The notes under the pieces were generated by a model. That model was not told the origin of the DNA and did no database searches. It saw nothing but the letters and a program-made list of their open reading frames with translations. The position numbers were made by a program, and so were the translations under genes. From Crocosphaera subtropica ATCC 51142 (GTDB lineage: Bacteria; Cyanobacteriota; Cyanobacteriia; Cyanobacteriales; Microcystaceae), in assembly GCF_000017845.1 (NCBI RefSeq), contig NC_010546.1, positions 1,890,001 through 1,922,000 on the forward strand: DNA of 32,000 nucleotides. The letters are read 5' to 3'. The stretch's first letter is position 1; each line of letters begins with the position of its first letter. Positions 4,706 to 29,046 of the stretch are shown one piece after another.

Positions 4706-4971
4706 AATCAATGATTAATTTCCTTTTTTGTGTATGACCCCAGAAGGGATTCGTTTCTGATTTATTGTCAGGCGATCGCAGTTTAATATTTAACTGTAAA
4801 AAGTTTTTTGAACTGAATCGTTATTTGGTCAATTATTTAGTCATTATTGATGTCACCCTATGGAGTGTTTAGGGTGAGTTCAAATTAAGTTAATAGGTGA
4901 CGGAAATTGAACCATAGACTATACTTGGTGATACCATATAAAAATAATTTTTTAGAACGTTCTCCAAGGCC

Positions 4972-22584: not shown

Positions 22585-22656
22585 GGGCGATTAGCTCAGC
22601 GGTAGAGCTCCTGCCTTACAAGCAGGCTGTCACTGGTTCAAATCCAGTATCGCCCA
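22585..22656 (+). tRNA. trnV: tRNA-Val (anticodon UAC), no encoded CCA
   Basis: The cloverleaf folds by hand. Acceptor GGGCGAT/ATCGCCC; D arm GCTC-AGCGGTA-GAGC; anticodon arm CCTGC-CTTACAA-GCAGG; variable CTGTC; T arm ACTGG-TTCAAAT-CCAGT; discriminator A. Confidence 0.95.
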
Positions 22657-22657
22657 T
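22612..22657 (+). repeat. attL core (inside the intact tRNA-Val)
   Basis: TGCCTTACAAGCAGGCTGTCACTGGTTCAAATCCAGTATCGCCCAT, identical to 28892-28937. Confidence 0.9.
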
Positions 22658-22751
22658 TGTTTTGCGTGACCATAAAGAGTGTCATGACCCTTAAATTATT
22701 ACATATTTTGATGTATAGCTGTTTATCTATAGTTTCACCATGCAATGATAG

Positions 22752-22787
22752 ACAAAAATAAATCCCTCTACCGGTCAAGGTAAAGGG
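22752..22787 (-). terminator. Candidate intrinsic terminator of the prim-pol/helicase gene
   Basis: On the minus strand: CCCTTTACC-TTGACC-GGTAGAGGG (9-bp stem, one mismatch) followed by ATTTATTTTTG. It lies 14 nt after the stop at 22801. Confidence 0.4.
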
Positions 22788-22800
22788 TTCTAGTCTGTAT

Positions 22801-25800
22801 TTAAGAAAATGAGGGCTTGGTATCTTTCAAAAATTGGAAGTCTGATAACGGTTGATTTTTTTGATGGCCATCCTCATGAATGGCGATCGCAAAAACTTCT
22901 TTTCCCTTCTGATATTCGTACTGTATTTTGTACCATTCTCCTGTAGGAAGATGTAGTACACTCCATCCTTGGTGTGTTAAATCTATGGCGTGTTGGTTCA
23001 TTTGTTCTGTTGACGTTTTTGTAGCAAGAAAACTTTTCTTACTCCCTTCTCCTGTAGTATGTCCGTAACCCATTTCGGTAAGGTCATCAAACATTTTTCG
23101 GATGTCAGCCATCGAATAAGACTTAAAAACTCGACTTGCCATTTTTACGTCTCTAGCCTTAATTTCCCCTTTCTTCAAAGAAAAGTCATAGATTTTCTTT
23201 AACTCAGGGGTCAAATCCCCAGTGACCTCTAAAATGTCCTGATAGATAAGGTCAAATTGGTTTTGGTATATCTTTATGAGTTCGATAGCCTTTTCTAGAT
23301 GCTTACGAGATATCACATACCGTTCTAACTCTATTGGTTTAAATGCCTTTTCTATCGCCTCATCAATCATCTTTTTGAACTCATCAAGGGATAACCTTGT
23401 TGCTGTTATTCCTTTGATGTAAGCAGTATCGATTAAGGACAAAATTAAGGCAATATCCCCCACAAAAGCAGTGTGTTTAGAGAATATCTTACTCTTATAC
23501 GTTCCCTCTCCCTTAACCTTCTCTTCTTGGCAATATTCAAACCATTCCCTGTAAAGTTCTTTAGCATCGGGACTTAATTCGGCTCTATAAGCAGGTAAAG
23601 CTATTAAGTTGAGGTAAATACCTTTAAGTAAGGGATACAACCCAGAATCATAGTCATTTTCTGGAAATATGGCTTTTTTGGTGGGACGACAACACATTAA
23701 AAACCTTGCCCAATACCCGTTAGGATCAGACCCATCTCCCATTTGTTGCTTAAGGATATCGGGTTGAATCCCCCCTACGATGCTATAGGTTGACCGCAAA
23801 GCAAAAACGCTACTATCAACCCTTTCAGTGTGTGGAAAAGTACCGTCCCTTGCTTGCAGTAAGTTCTCAATATCACGTCCTTTTCCCCCTTTATACTGGT
23901 TTGCTCCCTTTAATAAGGCAGAAAGTTCGTCAAACTCCAAAAGAAACCCTCTATCTTGCTGTCTCGCTTGTAGTCTTACTAATGCCTCCCCAGTCGTATC
24001 ATTTACATAAAACCTTTGAGGATCGAATGGAGTGATAGGCTTTTCTTCCCTTTCTTCTGTAGGTGTCGCTTTCCATTGGTCTAGTGCTTCACTATAAAGT
24101 TGGGTTGACCGTTCCCACATTTCTTGTGCTGTTGCTTGGAACTCTTCAAGGGGCTTTTTCAGGGTCTTTAGGGTAGGGGACTTTGCACAACCACTTCCCC
24201 CTACAATCCCAGACCAGATGATAGGATGCCTCTTAAAGTCACTAGCCTTTATCAAAGTTAGATGAGTATTAGCATTAATTAGGGACGAAGCAATGGGTAG
24301 TAAACAGGTTAACAAACCCAGTTCAGTCGTACCCAAAATAGATGATATATTTTTGAGCTTGACAGCTAGTCCAGAAGGTATATAATGACCTAAATCTATA
24401 TCTTTGGTCTGAACCTGTAGTAAGTGGTCTAGCGTACGCTTGAGGTCTGGGAGTTGTTCTTTATACTCTGCCTCCTGTATCCACTGGGTATAAGTTGACT
24501 CAACCCATTGAACACGATGACCCACTAATTTAGCTAGACTACCTAATTCAAGAGTTAAAGCAGTACCCGTCAAGTTTGAGTTATAGAACTCTTCAAAGTA
24601 TTGAAGTAGGGACACTTTTAACTCTTCTGTGTCGATACTGTTTTTAGTAGTACCTTGAAAAACACTGGGTAGTAGCAGGTCACTACCAGTCAGATTGTAA
24701 AAAGCTTGCTTTAGGGCAGGTATGCCGAAAGCTCCTGTAGTAGAGTCGTTAACCTGCTCCCAGTCCCCTGTACCGTGGGGTAGTAACGGACTAAACAACT
24801 CTAGTGCTTTATTTTTATCTCCGAGTATATTGCCTGATGCTCCTAAAGCCACTCTATAGGAATCATAGGTATTTGTCCCTGCTACTCTTGTAGGTAGATT
24901 GGTGACTACATATCTGATTAGTTCTAAACAGTTTTCTTCCCCATACTTCTTAATGTAGTCAATGGTACTGGTTGAGGAGATACTACTAGATTCCCATACC
25001 TTACATTTATTTGTAATAGTATGTTTTGGTAGGGTCTTTCCTAGTCCTGTAACTATACTCTCAAGGTTATTTTTTAACTCTTCAAAGGTAGGGAATTTTC
25101 TTTTTATTTCCTTCCCTAAAGGGTTTAGAGAAGTCTCAGGAGAAAGGTATAGTAAGGCTTGCTCTTTTTCTTTGTCCTTACGATAAAAACTAGGAACCCT
25201 CATTTGTTGAACTACATTATTACAAGGTTTAGGGTCAACATATCCGTCATAGATAGCCATCAACAAAGACATCAAATAAGCCCAATCATGCTTATTAATT
25301 GAATGACTTAATTTAATGGTTGTATGGTAGGATTTATTACCTGAATGATGGACTGCTAAACCTTTCCAGGGATAGTCTTTTATGAATGCTTTTAAAAGAG
25401 ATTCTTGTTCTGTTTGGGTTCCTTTGTCGAACTCTATTTGAAGGACATCAGTTTGCTTGAAACGGTCTGATGTAGGTGTAAAAGGAACTTGAGAAGGAAT
25501 CCAAGTGACCCCTTTTGTTCCTGGTTTCTCTGACAATTCTCTGATGTATTCATAGGCTAAATGGTATCCCCCAACTTCTTTCCTAGTCTCTTTCTTCCCT
25601 TTTTCTTCCTTCTGAGTAAGAATAACCTTTAAACTGAGTGGATCACCGTCATAGGTTCCTTTGTAGAACTCAGGGGCTTTACCCTCGTACTGAACAATAA
25701 ACCAGATATTTTGTGGAGGCGAATAGGTATCTGTAAGAGTGAAAAAGGTTTTAGCAAAAGCTTCAAAAGCATCCTTTTTTGTTAGGATATCTTGTCCTAA

Positions 25801-25866
25801 ACCATTACTTGCTATAGTAGAATTAAGCAAGTCGAAACCATTACTTGCATGGCTATTGTTTCGCAT
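22801..25866 (-). CDS. Replication protein: N-terminal archaeo-eukaryotic primase (prim-pol) domain fused to a DUF3987/SF3-like P-loop helicase domain
   Basis: AEP motifs: acidic LQIEFD, HHSGNKSYHTTI (sGxxxH), and VDPKPCNNVVQQMRVPSFYRK (D...R-x-P-[GS]). The P-loop is GIVGGSGCAKSPTL (Ala replaces the usual Gly before Lys). The Walker B-like motif is FLLEFDELSALL. Length 1021 aa. Confidence 0.7.
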   Translation of the reverse strand: MRNNSHASNGFDLLNSTIASNGLGQDILTKKDAFEAFAKTFFTLTDTYSPPQNIWFIVQYEGKAPEFYKGTYDGDPLSLKVILTQKEEKGKKETRKEVGGYHLAYEYIRELSEKPGTKGVTWIPSQVPFTPTSDRFKQTDVLQIEFDKGTQTEQESLLKAFIKDYPWKGLAVHHSGNKSYHTTIKLSHSINKHDWAYLMSLLMAIYDGYVDPKPCNNVVQQMRVPSFYRKDKEKEQALLYLSPETSLNPLGKEIKRKFPTFEELKNNLESIVTGLGKTLPKHTITNKCKVWESSSISSTSTIDYIKKYGEENCLELIRYVVTNLPTRVAGTNTYDSYRVALGASGNILGDKNKALELFSPLLPHGTGDWEQVNDSTTGAFGIPALKQAFYNLTGSDLLLPSVFQGTTKNSIDTEELKVSLLQYFEEFYNSNLTGTALTLELGSLAKLVGHRVQWVESTYTQWIQEAEYKEQLPDLKRTLDHLLQVQTKDIDLGHYIPSGLAVKLKNISSILGTTELGLLTCLLPIASSLINANTHLTLIKASDFKRHPIIWSGIVGGSGCAKSPTLKTLKKPLEEFQATAQEMWERSTQLYSEALDQWKATPTEEREEKPITPFDPQRFYVNDTTGEALVRLQARQQDRGFLLEFDELSALLKGANQYKGGKGRDIENLLQARDGTFPHTERVDSSVFALRSTYSIVGGIQPDILKQQMGDGSDPNGYWARFLMCCRPTKKAIFPENDYDSGLYPLLKGIYLNLIALPAYRAELSPDAKELYREWFEYCQEEKVKGEGTYKSKIFSKHTAFVGDIALILSLIDTAYIKGITATRLSLDEFKKMIDEAIEKAFKPIELERYVISRKHLEKAIELIKIYQNQFDLIYQDILEVTGDLTPELKKIYDFSLKKGEIKARDVKMASRVFKSYSMADIRKMFDDLTEMGYGHTTGEGSKKSFLATKTSTEQMNQHAIDLTHQGWSVLHLPTGEWYKIQYEYQKGKEVFAIAIHEDGHQKNQPLSDFQFLKDTKPSFS
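24428..24443. repeat. Island palindrome copy 4 (15/16), inside the prim-pol/helicase CDS
   Basis: TCTAGCGTACGCTTGA versus the consensus TCTAGCGTACGCTAGA. Confidence 0.7.
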
Positions 25867-25897
25867 GATATTCTTTTAAAAAATTAAGTTTTTTCTA

Positions 25898-25933
25898 GAA
25901 CCTTGTAGGATGTGTAAAGACCCTTCAAGGTTC
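25898..25933. promoter_or_regulatory. Inverted repeat GAACCTTG-N20-CAAGGTTC upstream of the prim-pol/helicase start
   Basis: Perfect 8-bp arms at 25898-25905 and 25926-25933, 32-67 nt upstream of the start codon at 25866. The function is unknown (operator, leader hairpin or origin element). Confidence 0.25.
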
Positions 25934-26111
25934 GATTTTAAACTATACCTTAGAGGTTTTGTGACGACAACTCGCATAAATAAGTAAAAGCCCCGAAAAA
26001 CATCTTTAAATTGATGAATTCAAGGGCTTTGAGGGTATATACTTTATTTATTAGATTTTTTCTCTACTTAGCGGAGTTATCCCACTAAGTAATCCTCTGA
26101 TCACAAGGGTT

Positions 26112-26516
26112 CTATTTCTTGTTTTCAGGGGGTTTTCCGTTGCTTGAAGACTCTAGAAGTCTTCTTATTTCTTTTAGTTCTAATTCCATTTCTTCCTGTT
26201 TTCTTATGGAATGAGCTAAAGCATTATGCACTGATTGTTCGACTTCAAATTGCTTGGTTAGTAGAAACTCCATTTTTCCTTCTCCGATATTAATTCCCTT
26301 GGCATGGTGGATCACGGTTCGCCCCGTAGTGGATAAATTAGGTAAACCCTCTTTGAACTCTTTTCCATCATGAAGCAGGTCGATGACCTTGCAAATAATC
26401 AGTCTAGCGACAGTAGCTCTAGTATTTCCCATTCTTTCAGCAAGTTCTATTAACTTGTCGTTGTAGTCATCGTCTAATTGGACATTAAACCTTGTCGTTG
26501 TTAGTTCCTTAGCCAT
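26112..26516 (-). CDS. Ribbon-helix-helix (CopG/Arc/MetJ-type) DNA-binding protein with a C-terminal coiled coil
   Basis: The N-terminus TRFNVQLDDDYNDKLIELAERMGNTRATVARLIICKVIDLL fits the beta-strand / helix A / G-x-[ST]-R turn / helix B pattern. The start overlaps the upstream stop as ATGGCTAA. Confidence 0.65.
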   Translation of the reverse strand: MAKELTTTRFNVQLDDDYNDKLIELAERMGNTRATVARLIICKVIDLLHDGKEFKEGLPNLSTTGRTVIHHAKGINIGEGKMEFLLTKQFEVEQSVHNALAHSIRKQEEMELELKEIRRLLESSSNGKPPENKK

Positions 26517-26805
26517 TAGTTTTATGCTCCTCTGAGAGTGTTTTTATCATGTTTTGGGACTCAAGCCCTTTAACCATCAAATCAAGGCTCATAGACCCTG
26601 ATTTCTTCCTACGCTTTGTTTTTTCAGCTAGTTCCTGTAAGTCATCCTTCCTGATAACGATAAACTCTTCATTGTCATCTAGCATTTTGGCCACTGCGAT
26701 TAGAAAAGTAATAAATTTATCAGGAACCCTGACAGGTCTGCTTGGCTGTGTTTTCCATTTTGGTTTTTGAGGGTTTAGGTTCTTAATTTGTATCTCTGTA
26801 GGCAT
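26509..26805 (-). CDS. Hypothetical basic protein (98 aa), first gene of the leftward operon
   Basis: Track ORF 26509-26844. The first 13 codons merely translate the 16-bp palindrome, so I prefer the ATG at 26805 (MPTEIQIKNL). It overlaps the RHH gene by 8 nt, consistent with translational coupling. Confidence 0.5.
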   Translation of the reverse strand: MPTEIQIKNLNPQKPKWKTQPSRPVRVPDKFITFLIAVAKMLDDNEEFIVIRKDDLQELAEKTKRRKKSGSMSLDLMVKGLESQNMIKTLSEEHKTNG

Positions 26806-26811
26806 CTTCCC

Positions 26812-26827
26812 TCTAGCGTACGCTAGA
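26812..26827. repeat. Island palindrome copy 1 (16/16)
   Basis: TCTAGCGTACGCTAGA, perfectly self-complementary, 7 nt upstream of the ATG at 26805. Confidence 0.9.
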
Positions 26828-26876
26828 AATGTAGGGGTAAACAAGCACCAATTTTAGGTATATTATAGGGATGTTG

Positions 26877-26892
26877 TCAAGCGTACGCTAGA
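26877..26892. repeat. Island palindrome copy 2 (15/16)
   Basis: TCAAGCGTACGCTAGA, 8 nt upstream of the ATG at 26901. Confidence 0.85.
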
Positions 26893-26900
26893 GATTAATC

Positions 26901-27251
26901 ATGGTTTCTCTTCCTAAAAAACAGTCTGAGACAAAAAAACTAAAGAAGCTTCCTAGAGGACAATATTTCGTAAAAGACTTTAACCCAGAAACTAAAGAGG
27001 CCATTGTCCAAAACTATGTAGGAGAGTATTTTGGACAGAGCATCATAGAAACCATACCAGTTAGGATCAATACTAATATCCCTCGGTGCTGTACCGTAGC
27101 AGGGGTTTTAATTGCTTCGGATGGGCAAGGAAGTGTCTGTGATCGCATAACTATTCCTAGGGACTCCTACGGTGATCCCGTTCCTTTCCTTCATATTGAA
27201 AGGGTTGTGTCGGTTCGCTTTTACTCTGAGGTGGCATCAGACCTACAATAA
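26901..27251 (+). CDS. Hypothetical protein (116 aa), the only rightward gene of the element
   Basis: A complete ORF with an ATG start and a basic N-terminus KKQSETKKLKKLPRG. No recognisable domain. It is bracketed by palindrome copies 2 and 3. Confidence 0.5.
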   Translation: MVSLPKKQSETKKLKKLPRGQYFVKDFNPETKEAIVQNYVGEYFGQSIIETIPVRINTNIPRCCTVAGVLIASDGQGSVCDRITIPRDSYGDPVPFLHIERVVSVRFYSEVASDLQ

Positions 27252-27260
27252 ATCTGTTTT

Positions 27261-27276
27261 TCTAGCGTACGCTAGA
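27261..27276. repeat. Island palindrome copy 3 (16/16)
   Basis: TCTAGCGTACGCTAGA, 9 nt after the stop of the 116-aa gene. It overlaps the stop codon of the convergent 75-aa gene. Confidence 0.9.
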
Positions 27277-27499
27277 GCCGTGACCAATAAACCCAATAAG
27301 GAACAACCGCTTTTATGGGTATTGGTTTAACAGGAATATTATGGTCGGGGGGTAATACTGGTTTCGGGAACGGCAAACCCTGTAATGACGAGGCTTCTGA
27401 CGATTTTCCGTTGACAAATTCGTGAACGGAGCCAGACCTTTTTCCAATCGCATCAGCCACTTGAGTTTGACTCATCACATAGGAACCATCGGGTAGCAT
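27272..27499 (-). CDS. Small Cro/XRE-like helix-turn-helix protein (regulator or excisionase candidate)
   Basis: MSQTQVADAIGKRSGSVHEFVNGKS fits a helix-turn-helix of the XRE/Cro type. The C-terminal half is Pro-rich. It lies downstream of int on the same strand. The start is either 27499 or the internal Met at 27475. Confidence 0.45.
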   Translation of the reverse strand: MLPDGSYVMSQTQVADAIGKRSGSVHEFVNGKSSEASSLQGLPFPKPVLPPDHNIPVKPIPIKAVVPYWVYWSRL

Positions 27500-27646
27500 A
27501 AAAACTTCAAAGGGACATACCCAGGTATATGAGGTATGTTAGGACAGGTAGTGTACCAAGTACATTGTTTGTTGAGTTTACGATAAGGTAGTTTTGGCAT
27601 AGAGATACGACTCGGATATCTAAGGTCAAAGTAACTTTTTTGCTTG

Positions 27647-27675
27647 CACTGCAAAAAACACTGCTACTACACTGC
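27647..27675. repeat. Three phased CACTGC direct repeats between int and the HTH gene
   Basis: CACTGC occurs at 27647, 27659 and 27670 (spacing 12 and 11 nt). The repeats overlap an A/T hairpin, TTTTTTGC-N7-GCAAAAAA (27636-27658). Confidence 0.3.
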
Positions 27676-27680
27676 AATGC

Positions 27681-28835
27681 CTAGACAGGTTTAATAGTAC
27701 CCGTATCTCCCAGGTAATGTTTCTCTATCACCCTTACTGAGTTATCACACCACTTAGCTACTATGGCAGGGGGTATGCCCTGCTCTATCTGTTTAGTAAT
27801 AAAGGTGTCCCTGAGATTGTAGGGAGTGTAATCAGTAGTTGTCTTACTCCAATACCTACGTTTAAAATTAATATAATCTATAGGTTTACCTTCACGACTT
27901 AGGAATACTAAGTTCCAATGGTTATCTATGGGTAGTAGTTTGTTTAGTAGTTCCCTTAGCTTACCAGTCATGGGGAACTTTCTTATAGTTCCGTTCTTAC
28001 TGGTAGCTATAGTCACCCATTGCCCTTTAATCCTTTCAATACTAGAACCTAAAAGTATGTATTCATCGTGAATAGCATCCCATGTTAATCCTATAGCCTC
28101 CGAAGGTCTGCATCCTGTTAAAACCATAAATTCTACTAGATGCCCAAAAGGAGGGTGTGTTAGGTATAGGGCATCTAGTATAGCTTGTAGCTCTATATCG
28201 GGTATAGGTTTAATAGTAGTATGCGGATTCACTGTTGGTTTTTTCTTTTTTAATGCCTTAGTGATAGGGGCATAAGGGTTAGGTTCATTAGGGTATTCTT
28301 TAAATATGTACTTATAGATAGTGGACAATCTATTGATAACCCTTATAGTAACATCTAGTGTTGTTCCTCTTTTTATTATTTCGTAAACACTCTTAGCATT
28401 AGATATGGGTTGACTGCCTACCCTTTTAATATGTGGTTGTACTGTTGTCTCAAGATATTTGGTAGTAGTAGGCTTAACAAGGTCTTTAATATCCTTAAGA
28501 TATGACTCCCAAGCATCCCATACGGACACAAACCTTAGTTGATGCAACGCTTTTGTTTTTACCCTATTTTCTTTATCTAGGTGGGGTAGGTACTTAAGCA
28601 TAGTCGAGTCGTACCTATCAAAAAGATAATCACTTTCTATCTTGCTGATAATATCTCTTGCCCTAGCTCTACCATCTTCAGTATTAGGCAAGTTGAGTGA
28701 GTAATAACGTCTAGGGTTAGATTCAATTGTACTAGGTGTTTTTACATAGAGTCTATTCTTTAATTTATATAGTACAAAAGAACCTTTTTTTATGGGTCTA
28801 GAGTCTATTCTTTTGAACCTTTTGGTGACTACCAC
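27681..28835 (-). CDS. Tyrosine recombinase / phage-type integrase
   Basis: Catalytic-domain motifs: LTGCRPSEAIGLTW (Arg I), TSKNGTIRKFPM (Lys), YNLRDTF (Arg II) and VIEKHYLG (Tyr nucleophile). GTG start at 28835. It lies 56 nt from attR. Confidence 0.85.
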   Translation of the reverse strand: MVVTKRFKRIDSRPIKKGSFVLYKLKNRLYVKTPSTIESNPRRYYSLNLPNTEDGRARARDIISKIESDYLFDRYDSTMLKYLPHLDKENRVKTKALHQLRFVSVWDAWESYLKDIKDLVKPTTTKYLETTVQPHIKRVGSQPISNAKSVYEIIKRGTTLDVTIRVINRLSTIYKYIFKEYPNEPNPYAPITKALKKKKPTVNPHTTIKPIPDIELQAILDALYLTHPPFGHLVEFMVLTGCRPSEAIGLTWDAIHDEYILLGSSIERIKGQWVTIATSKNGTIRKFPMTGKLRELLNKLLPIDNHWNLVFLSREGKPIDYINFKRRYWSKTTTDYTPYNLRDTFITKQIEQGIPPAIVAKWCDNSVRVIEKHYLGDTGTIKPV

Positions 28836-28891
28836 TACCTTGAACCCCTATAATGTATGTGTACCGTCACATACACCCTTCTGTGAATCTG

Positions 28892-28937
28892 TGCCTTACA
28901 AGCAGGCTGTCACTGGTTCAAATCCAGTATCGCCCAT
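28892..28937 (+). repeat. attR core (duplicated 3' portion of tRNA-Val)
   Basis: Identical to 22612-22657. The sequence upstream of 28892 diverges from the tRNA 5' half, so this copy is not a functional tRNA. Confidence 0.9.
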
Positions 28938-28999
28938 AAAAAAGCAAAAAAGTCGATTAATAGTTACTAGAAATAATGATTAAGTCAGGGTTTCTTTTA

Positions 29000-29046
29000 A
29001 TTAATACCTAAATGACTAATTTAAGGTATTAATCTAGGCTTTTTTC
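29000..29046 (+). terminator. Possible original tRNA-Val terminator, displaced by the insertion
   Basis: ATTAATACCT (29000-29009) pairs with AGGTATTAAT (29024-29033). A T6 run lies at 29040-29045, but it is 6 nt from the stem, which is atypical. Confidence 0.3.

Follow-up and report, generated by a model that had tools for sequence, protein, structure and literature searches.

In the Sulfolobus plasmid pRN1 and in pMV158, a small ribbon-helix-helix (RHH)-type repressor gene (orf56 and CopG, respectively) lies directly upstream of a co-oriented replicase gene (orf904 and RepB), with an inverted-repeat operator at the operon promoter. The promoter region of pRN1 orf56/orf904 is essential, and the pRN1 origin is of the stem-loop type (PMC4234260). 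PICI/tycheposon-like integrative elements (bioRxiv 10.1101/2020.12.28.424599) combine tRNA integration and a partial tRNA repeat with a tyrosine integrase, a divergent switch with small regulators and a primase/helicase-type replicase. Here we describe a 6.28-kb element at tRNA-Val of Crocosphaera subtropica ATCC 51142, with six genes (cce_1882 to cce_1887; Table 1), that resembles both types and carries four copies of a 16-bp palindrome.

The element was analysed within a 32-kb stretch of DNA (hereafter, the window). Like the PICI/tycheposon-like elements, it has the parts of a tRNA-integrating replicative element, namely a tyrosine integrase, a 46-bp att repeat containing the 3' part of tRNA-Val and a DUF3987 replicase. 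It differs from them in being only 6.3 kb long, in small proteins that are all orphans, in having no known link to a helper phage and in carrying no capsid, terminase or cargo genes (no match among the six genes in Pfam, PHROGs, NCBIfam or PADLOC). No related element was found in any collection searched. The helicase half of protein A matches DUF3987 (Pfam, E = 2e-35) and is akin to cyanobacterial plasmid replicases, the C-terminal part is winged-helix-like and the N-terminal 420 amino acids are almost without relatives. The original prediction had called A a prim-pol/helicase; a profile recovered the helicase half, whereas none confirmed the prim-pol. Genes A and B, both on the minus strand, are 245 bp apart, with a possible separate promoter and hairpins in the spacer, which is itself an alternative candidate origin, terminator or leader. 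Proteins C and D match no family, and the structure model of D is poor. The label 'Cro-like HTH' given to protein E proved weak: its Pfam search was empty, its matches to PHROG 'repressor' families were weak and the one real relative is a 198-aa Pseudanabaena plasmid protein, to whose N-terminal part E is 38% identical.

Table 1 Features of the element and its integration site (positions in the window)
Feature	Position	Strand	Description
tRNA-Val(TAC)	22585..22656	+	Integration target
Left att copy	22612..22657		Last 45 nt of tRNA-Val plus the next base
Gene A (cce_1882)	22801..25866	-	Replicase, 1021 aa
P4	24428..24443	.	15/16 copy TCTAGCGTACGCTTGA within replicase gene A, codons 475-480 (LKRTLD)
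Spacer B-A	25867..26111	-	AT-rich, strongly structured (z = -3.8), no palindrome copy
Gene B (cce_1883)	26112..26516	-	134 aa
Gene C (RefSeq WP_024750286)	26509..26805	-	98 aa from ATG 26805; 8-nt overlap with B
P1	26812..26827	.	Perfect TCTAGCGTACGCTAGA; 6 nt upstream of gene C ATG (26805)
Rightward promoter-like site	26838..26866	+	TAAACA-17-TATTAT, 9/12 consensus match; overlaps leftward site
Leftward promoter-like site	26851..26880	-	TTGACA-18-TAAAAT, 11/12 consensus match
P2	26877..26892	.	15/16 copy TCAAGCGTACGCTAGA; 8 nt upstream of gene D ATG (26901)
Gene D (cce_1884)	26901..27251	+	116 aa; only plus-strand gene of the element
P3	27261..27276	.	Perfect copy, between convergent genes D and E
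Gene E (cce_1885)	27272..27499	-	75 aa
Gene F (cce_1887)	27681..28835	-	Tyrosine integrase (Phage_integrase, E = 1e-11)
Right att copy	28892..28937	+	46 nt, identical to left copy

The palindrome TCTAGCGTACGCTAGA is perfect over its 16 bp at P1 and P3 and occurs with one mismatch at P2 and P4. Scanning the window with up to three mismatches allowed returned these four copies and no fifth, against 0.02 expected, and 0 of 100 shuffles reached four. The 8-mer core GCGTACGC is confined to the same sites (0.08 expected in the window), the half-site ACGCTAGA does not occur in the window outside them and any further perfect palindromes in the window do not exceed 14 bp. Three of the copies fall within 465 bp, as first described, and all four lie between the att repeats. 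The original observation of four element-confined palindromes, absent with their core from the rest of the 32 kb and beyond chance expectation, is correct, and 'island-specific' holds within the window. In DNA from other sources the exact 16-mer is very rare and always single: 596 Gb of genomes contain two unrelated loci with one site each, and among viral contigs a single site occurs in one levivirus contig. A search of metagenomes with a four-variant pattern found single sites only, apart from two unrelated two-site contigs, one in which the sites are a tandem duplication (L023) and one in which the second site has two mismatches (L038). None of these loci, in genomes, viral contigs or metagenomes, encodes a relative of any protein of the element.

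This distribution bears on the suggestion that the palindromes are parS-like centromere sites, or sites of a host factor (restriction-modification or nucleoid), and not sites of an element regulator, which we consider extremely unlikely. Several perfect 16-bp palindromes, some of them intragenic, are the pattern of parS sites bound by ParB; a Cyanobacterium aponinum plasmid has an 18-bp palindrome in three copies around parA/parB, and the six-base palindromic core, CGTACG, is the sort of sequence that restriction-modification systems recognize. However, the element encodes neither ParA nor ParB (no Par family match among its six proteins) and has no defence-system match, and a host-factor site would be expected in host DNA too, where the window has no copy in 25.7 kb even at three mismatches. 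The dispersed palindrome that the host does have, HIP1 (GCGATCGC), is a different sequence and nearly absent from the element, with 1 copy inside and 18 in the rest of the window. HIP1 was also rejected as the identity of the 16-mer: although the core GCGTACGC differs from this 8-bp GC-rich palindrome in the central two bases only, the 16-mer is twice as long and has the reverse, element-confined distribution.

The centres of P1 and P2 are separated by 65 bp, in near mirror symmetry about the middle of the 95-bp region between C and D, and the pair brackets two overlapping divergent promoter-like sites. The leftward site, from which C, B and perhaps A would be transcribed, is the best sigma-70-like match in the 3.2 kb from 25800 to 29000; it lies between P1 and P2, with its -35 box overlapping P2 and with P1 at about +18 to +33. 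Relative to the rightward site, which would drive D, P2 is at about +5 to +20 and P1 at about -46 to -61. Both sites are consensus matches only, among 13 found in the scanned region against 8.5 expected. The -35 box is often missing in cyanobacterial promoters. P3 follows the stop codon of D (27249-27251), contains the TAG stop codon of E (27272-27274) and, when inverted, has 19 nt in common with P1. P4, just inside the start of the gene A region that is homologous to other DUF3987 replicases, is the 16-mer of P2 in the opposite orientation.

On the minus strand, P2 has a perfect -35 hexamer, TTGACA, where the consensus palindrome would give TAGACA; this is its sole mismatch. The sole mismatch of P4, at the symmetry-equivalent position, gives AAG in place of an in-frame TAG, so that a stop codon in gene A is avoided. 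Each departure from the consensus is thus explained by a competing constraint, which suggests that selection preserves the remaining bases of each site. Because the variants are one-armed and uncompensated, and hairpin energies are ordinary, the palindromes probably serve sequence-specific recognition of duplex DNA and not a structural role. It is very unlikely that they act as RNA hairpins, masking the ribosome-binding region or protecting the 5' end for C and D, and providing 3'-end protection against exonucleases or termination for D and E. Such hairpins would suit the placement of P1 and P2 close to start codons (6 and 8 nt upstream), the overlap of one P1 arm with the Shine-Dalgarno-like GAGGGAAG and the location of P3 at a convergent gene junction, but their stability is that of shuffled sequence (z of +0.05 to -1.75), the stem is nearly lost in P2 and P4 and Rfam returned no match. 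Structure alone would also not demand 15-16 identical bases at four sites. Intrinsic terminators were rejected, as the terminator scan was empty at the palindromes, no T-run lies downstream in either direction and folding energies are ordinary.

The best explanation, to which we give a probability of about 0.5, is that the four palindromes are operators for a two-fold symmetric, element-encoded DNA-binding protein, most likely the RHH-like protein B. This explanation, already proposed in the original prediction, fits the anatomy, in which P1 and P2 flank the divergent promoter-like sites and adjoin both start codons. We infer promoter function of the consensus matches, protein binding at the palindromes, the identity of the binder and looping. 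The binder could equally be C, D, E or A, the last through its winged-helix-like C-terminal part.

Four independent weak signals make the RHH assignment of protein B plausible, but it falls below threshold in every test. B scores 15.7 bits against Pfam RHH_1 (cutoff 20.5), E values for Pfam RHH_1 and TraY are about 0.015-0.016 and the NCBIfam RelB-like match (E = 0.002) is far short of the curated cutoff. The best PDB match, a weak one (E = 0.49), is pRN1 ORF56. AlphaFold places a strand at residues 7-13 and helices at 16-29 and 33-50 (pLDDT about 60-66 there) in a model of low overall confidence (mean pLDDT 61.6). Foldseek returned nothing under E = 0.05, with RHH proteins (TraY, AvtR, PutA and TacA) recurring among its weak matches. 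The model also has a long C-terminal helix (residues 88-125, pLDDT about 90), which could oligomerize dimers and bridge sites.

In the mechanism that we propose, the binder would be a symmetric oligomer encoded by the element, with protein B favoured, its gene being just upstream of the replicase. Occupancy of both P1 and P2 would switch off the leftward C-B(-A) replication operon as well as rightward transcription of D. For B, this would be autorepression that limits the supply of replicase, as with CopG of pMV158 and ORF56 of pRN1. P3 and P4 would have an auxiliary role: by looping to P1/P2, they could keep additional repressor close to the switch; alternatively, they could block read-through along gene A or from the integrase-E operon, which shares its strand with C-B-A. 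Operators at such distances (0.4 and 2.4 kb) have precedents in other systems, but a CopG-type repressor that used them would be unusual. An extended form of this idea, which we regard as quite unlikely, has all four palindromes joined by a single orphan protein in one looping network that physically links the P1/P2 switch with P3, where the integrase-E operon ends, and with P4, inside the replicase gene. If true, one occupancy state would jointly set transcription, host-to-element read-through and replicase production or origin firing, and a cyanobacterial element of 6 kb would have a minimal long-range switch of the lambda kind, built from proteins without detectable relatives.

The main alternative, on balance rather unlikely, is that the palindromes are recognition sites of replicase A, serving as origin, autoregulatory sites or both. 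A would then assemble through its C-terminal winged-helix-like region, P4 would be the origin or part of it and P1/P2 would mediate self-repression by A. No 8- to 10-mer of the element outside the palindrome is strongly repeated, which leaves no other repeated motif for the replicase to bind and favours this alternative. The closest relative of A, the Rep of the C. aponinum plasmid noted above (33% identical over residues 420-957), has the motif TGTTGACA clustered in its own gene (23 matches against 8.7 expected), and one copy is 5 nt off the position homologous to P4, a coincidence with a chance of about 15% given about 10 copies in 3.4 kb. Origins within initiator genes are established (lambda O), as are palindromic origins of helicase-type initiators (papillomavirus E1 and SV40 T antigen), and the initiator P4 alpha binds two distant loci, ori and crr. 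Against this, the sites are unclustered, with one in A and three spread over 465 bp at gene boundaries, and no AT-rich unwinding stretch adjoins them (GC of 41-47% around P3 and P4). As an origin, of the pRN1 stem-loop type, the spacer directly upstream of A is the stronger candidate. The original prediction had also offered iteron-like origin sites; the arrangement gives these no support, because the sites are dispersed and palindromic, without a cluster or a neighbouring AT-rich stretch, and the element lacks the at least three clustered, regularly spaced direct repeats with an AT-rich region that mark an iteron-type origin, although the closest relative of the replicase does carry iterons within its gene. 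Looping between the switch region and the copy in the replicase gene, a further suggestion of the original prediction, is possible.

If the operator explanation is confirmed, palindrome and binder would form a compact cyanobacterial regulator-operator pair unrelated to known ones, usable as a tightly defined switch in cyanobacteria, a group with few genetic parts. In addition, the element would be a small integrative replicon with a replicase of the plasmid DUF3987 type. The palindromes are real yet ordinary: the biology is otherwise as expected for the control region of a mobile element, and no long-standing open questions hang on them.

Among known systems, iteron plasmids share with this element the location of sites in the replicase gene, as in the related cyanobacterial plasmid Rep, but iterons are clustered short direct repeats by an AT-rich region, whereas the palindromes here are dispersed over promoters and gene ends. 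P4 alpha resembles A as an initiator of primase-helicase type with a C-terminal DNA-binding region and sites at separated loci. The likeness to pRN1 and pMV158 extends beyond the order of genes B and A: the pRN1 replicase is of the primase-helicase type and has a winged-helix domain, and the operator at the operon promoter has its counterpart in P2, which overlaps the predicted -35 box, and P1, in the predicted leader. The element differs from both plasmids in having four identical sites of 16 bp, of which two are 0.4 and 2.4 kb off the promoter and one is within the replicase gene, in the extra gene C before B, the divergent gene D and the extra C-terminal domain of B; the RHH assignment of B does not reach threshold, and there is hardly any sequence similarity. 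The arrangement of sites is matched by lac O1/O2/O3 and lambda OL-OR, in which a main operator pair at the promoter is accompanied by identical auxiliary sites hundreds to thousands of base pairs away. The proteins are unrelated, and looping or a tetrameric repressor would be hypothetical for this element. The spacings of the palindromes (65, 384 and 2384 bp) are comparable to those of the lac operators (92 and 401 bp) and of lambda (about 2.3 kb), and, as with O2 in lacZ, one auxiliary site is intragenic, in this case P4 in the replicase gene of a mobile element.

The original prediction described four copies of the 16-bp palindrome TCTAGCGTACGCTAGA, two perfect and two with a single mismatch, and we recovered all of them (P1-P4, Table). 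It also held that neither the palindrome nor its core GCGTACGC recurs in the 32-kb window, and this stands: no further copy appears even at three mismatches, and both the core and the half-site ACGCTAGA are limited to P1-P4 within the window. Only 0.02 matches would be expected where four were found, and 0 of 100 shuffles reached four. All four copies lie inside the element, which is inserted in the chromosome of Crocosphaera subtropica ATCC 51142 and where the palindrome is the sole strongly repeated sequence among 8- to 10-mers. P2 and P4 are the identical 16-mer in opposite orientation, and P1 and P3 have 19 bases in common, in inverted orientation. The set of repeats is real and statistically beyond doubt.

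Table. Positions of the mobile element, its genes, the palindrome copies and the promoter-like sites in the window.
Feature	Locus tag	Position	Strand	Description
tRNA-Val(TAC)		22585-22656		insertion site of the element
att repeats		22612-22657 and 28892-28937		identical 46-bp repeats bounding the 6.28-kb element
Gene A	cce_1882	22801-25866	-	1021 aa; helicase half matches DUF3987, E 2e-35
Gene B	cce_1883	26112-26516	-	134 aa; RHH-like
Gene C		26509-26805	-	98 aa with RefSeq start
Gene D	cce_1884	26901-27251	+	116 aa
Gene E	cce_1885	27272-27499	-	75 aa
Gene F	cce_1887	27681-28835	-	tyrosine integrase
P1		26812-26827		perfect copy of TCTAGCGTACGCTAGA
P2		26877-26892		one mismatch, begins TCAAGC
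P3		27261-27276		perfect copy of TCTAGCGTACGCTAGA
P4		24428-24443		one mismatch, ends GCTTGA
Leftward promoter-like site		26880-26851	-	TTGACA 26880-26875, 18 nt, TAAAAT 26856-26851; consensus match
Rightward promoter-like site		26838-26866	+	TAAACA from 26838, 17 nt, TATTAT to 26866; overlaps the leftward site; consensus match

Two of the copies frame the divergent genes C and D, the start codons of which are separated by 95 bp. The edge of P1 is 6 nt from the ATG of C and that of P2 is 8 nt from the ATG of D, placing the two sites, 65 bp apart from centre to centre, in near mirror symmetry about the midpoint of the spacer. The top sigma-70-like match in 25800-29000 also falls between P1 and P2, on the minus strand, with 11 of 12 consensus positions. 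If the promoter-like matches are taken at face value, the leftward putative promoter would have P2 at about -33 to -48 and P1 at about +18 to +33, and the rightward one would have P2 at about +5 to +20 and P1 at about -46 to -61. P3 lies at the junction of the convergent genes D and E, 9 nt past the D stop codon and with the E stop codon inside it. P4 occupies codons 475-480 of A, barely inside the start of the region that can be aligned with DUF3987 replicases. A plus-strand promoter-like sequence, TTTACT-18-TACAAT (27220-27249), is a chance-level match; P3 sits at about +5 to +20 of it, the same spacing as that of P2 to the rightward site, and transcription from this putative promoter would yield RNA that is antisense to E and to the integrase gene.

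The two imperfect copies are instructive. Without its single change, P2 would read TAGACA where it now has the perfect -35 hexamer TTGACA; the one in P4, at the symmetry-equivalent position, gives AAG (Lys) in place of an in-frame TAG that would interrupt the replicase gene. Both departures from the consensus are explained by a competing constraint, and the rest of each site is consensus; we therefore infer that selection keeps all four sites, including the in-gene P4. As the changes affect one arm only and are uncompensated, the stems of P2 and P4 are nearly lost as RNA, a pattern that fits protein recognition of the duplex sequence and not a structural role. The idea that the palindromes act as RNA hairpins is accordingly improbable, as RNA folding at the sites is no better than that of shuffled sequence (z from +0.05 to -1.75). 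Intrinsic terminators were also rejected, since no copy is followed by a T-run and a terminator scan reports none at the sites, as was a known RNA family, the Rfam matches being to the tRNA only.

We consider it about an even bet (probability roughly 0.5) that a protein encoded by the element, B being the likeliest, binds the palindromes as a symmetric oligomer and uses them as its operators. Four independent weak signals suggest that B is RHH-like. Pfam gave RHH_1 and TraY at E about 0.015, under the cutoffs; NCBIfam gave a RelB-like antitoxin at E 0.002; and a PDB search gave the pRN1 RHH repressor ORF56 at E 0.49. A single-sequence AlphaFold model of B, which is only suggestive, places a strand at 7-13, helices at 16-29 and 33-50, and a long C-terminal helix at 88-125 (pLDDT about 90). 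Foldseek returned no significant match with this model; among its weak matches, RHH proteins such as TraY, AvtR, PutA and TacA came up repeatedly.

The other proteins offer less to go on. The original prediction also named E as a candidate, as a Cro-like protein; the evidence for E consists of weak PHROG 'repressor' matches and a 71-residue alignment, at 38% identity, with the N-terminal part of a 198-aa protein from a Pseudanabaena plasmid (L130 4935-5531), so this label is not established. The gene for the 198-aa protein is located upstream of a DUF3854 replicase. E matches just the first half of this protein and ends at the TAG within P3, and may represent a larger protein in truncated form. 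For C and D there was no family, profile or homologue match, and the structure model of D was unusable (pLDDT 41).

With B as the presumed ligand, occupation of P1 and P2 would silence the two overlapping putative promoters, resulting in autorepression of the C-B(-A) operon and repression of D. P3 and P4 would act as auxiliary operators, which could cooperate with P1 and P2 by looping mediated by the long helix of B. Alternatively, they could block read-through, which is conceivable because F, E, C, B and A share one strand.

A second possibility, which we regard as about half as probable, is that replicase A is what binds the palindromes, which would then serve as its origin, as autoregulatory sites or as both. 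No other repeat in the element could serve A, and the closest Rep relative of A, on the Cyanobacterium aponinum plasmid pCYAN10605.01 (L129), has its own motif, TGTTGACA, clustered in its own gene (23 matches versus 8.7 expected), with one copy at a distance of 5 nt from the P4-homologous position. These TGTTGACA clusters (L129 3552-3867 and 5349-5452) lie in the Rep reading frame in opposite orientation, flanking the helicase domain, and are likely to be iterons of an origin inside the Rep gene. The C-terminal part of A can be aligned with the corresponding region of this Rep and by inspection appears to resemble a winged helix. Against such a role, the palindrome sites are unclustered and adjoin no AT-rich stretch, and the palindrome-free spacer between B and A (25867-26111) is more promising as an origin of the pRN1 stem-loop type. 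In window 25860-26115, this AT-rich spacer of 245 bp, upstream of A, folds far better as single-stranded DNA than shuffles do (-32.5 versus -19.4 kcal/mol, z -3.8); it contains three stem-loops and a promoter-like TTGTCG-17-TATAGT, and could serve the replicase gene as origin, terminator or leader.

Partition or host-factor sites are a still more doubtful proposal, and parS sites in particular were rejected as the element has no Par genes. The C. aponinum plasmid does carry a parS-like set, the 18-bp palindrome AGGTGAAACGTTTCGCCT, present three times (L129 8254, 8913 and 9506) in and around its parA and parB genes. A defence feature was dismissed, there being no match to a defence-system family, and so was a variant of the HIP1 palindrome GCGATCGC, from which P1-P4 differ in sequence as well as in distribution. 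HIP1 itself occurs 19 times in the window, 18 in host DNA and once in the element (22658-28891; binomial P = 0.09). CTAG is commoner in the element, which has 36 of the 91 CTAG sites of the window, and 30 of 85 when those in the palindromes are left out (P = 5e-4). This HIP1 scarcity and CTAG enrichment hint at a foreign origin of the element.

We also searched widely for relatives. Each of the six element proteins falls in a cluster that has at most two members, near-identical and from C. subtropica, and a word-index protein search with B returned B alone. In an exhaustive search of representative sequences, A had no match above 42% identity besides a fragment of A itself; in almost all relatives at or below that level, the helicase half alone was covered. 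Against plasmids and phages, tblastn of B, C, D and E gave one weak match, for E only, and blastn of the whole element gave none; scans of viral and metagenome contigs revealed no relatives of A. A literature search found no paper mentioning cce_1882 to cce_1887. The element is also present, at 100% identity, in public read assemblies (L001-L003). Contig L001 corresponds to window 22628-28921, made up of the unique part with 30 nt of an att copy on either side, and its ends are an assembly-graph break at the att repeat, not evidence for a circular form; contig L002 terminates at 26818, within P1.

The exact 16-mer occurred in 596 Gb of genomes (host masked or absent) at two unrelated single sites only, L004 and L005 being one site read on both strands, and once in a levivirus contig in the viral contig scan. 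In metagenomes, a four-variant pattern yielded chance single sites besides contigs L023 and L038. None of the sites in genomes, viral contigs or metagenomes was near a relative of any element protein. The two-copy L023 was rejected as a related locus, since what is duplicated in tandem there is a long hairpin unrelated to the element: at 4740-4920 of this metagenome contig, the palindrome TCAAGCGTACGCTTGA starts each 79-bp unit and in the first unit forms the centre of a long inverted repeat. L038 was attributed to chance.

The most economical reading is that the palindromes form the ordinary operator set of the control region of a small mobile element. What is unusual is that the in-gene copy P4 is preserved as far as coding permits, and that the small proteins of the element are all orphans. 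The C. aponinum plasmid resembles the element in gene order (integrase, opposed small genes, and a small gene plus Rep), but its integrase and small proteins are non-homologous and it has no palindrome in common. A 7.6-kb Oscillatoria plasmid differs in layout, and its palindromes are HIP1 only; neither of these distant plasmid relatives sheds light on the palindrome. The proposed regulation would follow the logic of CopG on pMV158 and ORF56 on pRN1, in which a small repressor precedes the replicase, as we propose for B and A; in pRN1, the promoter region is essential (PMC4234260).
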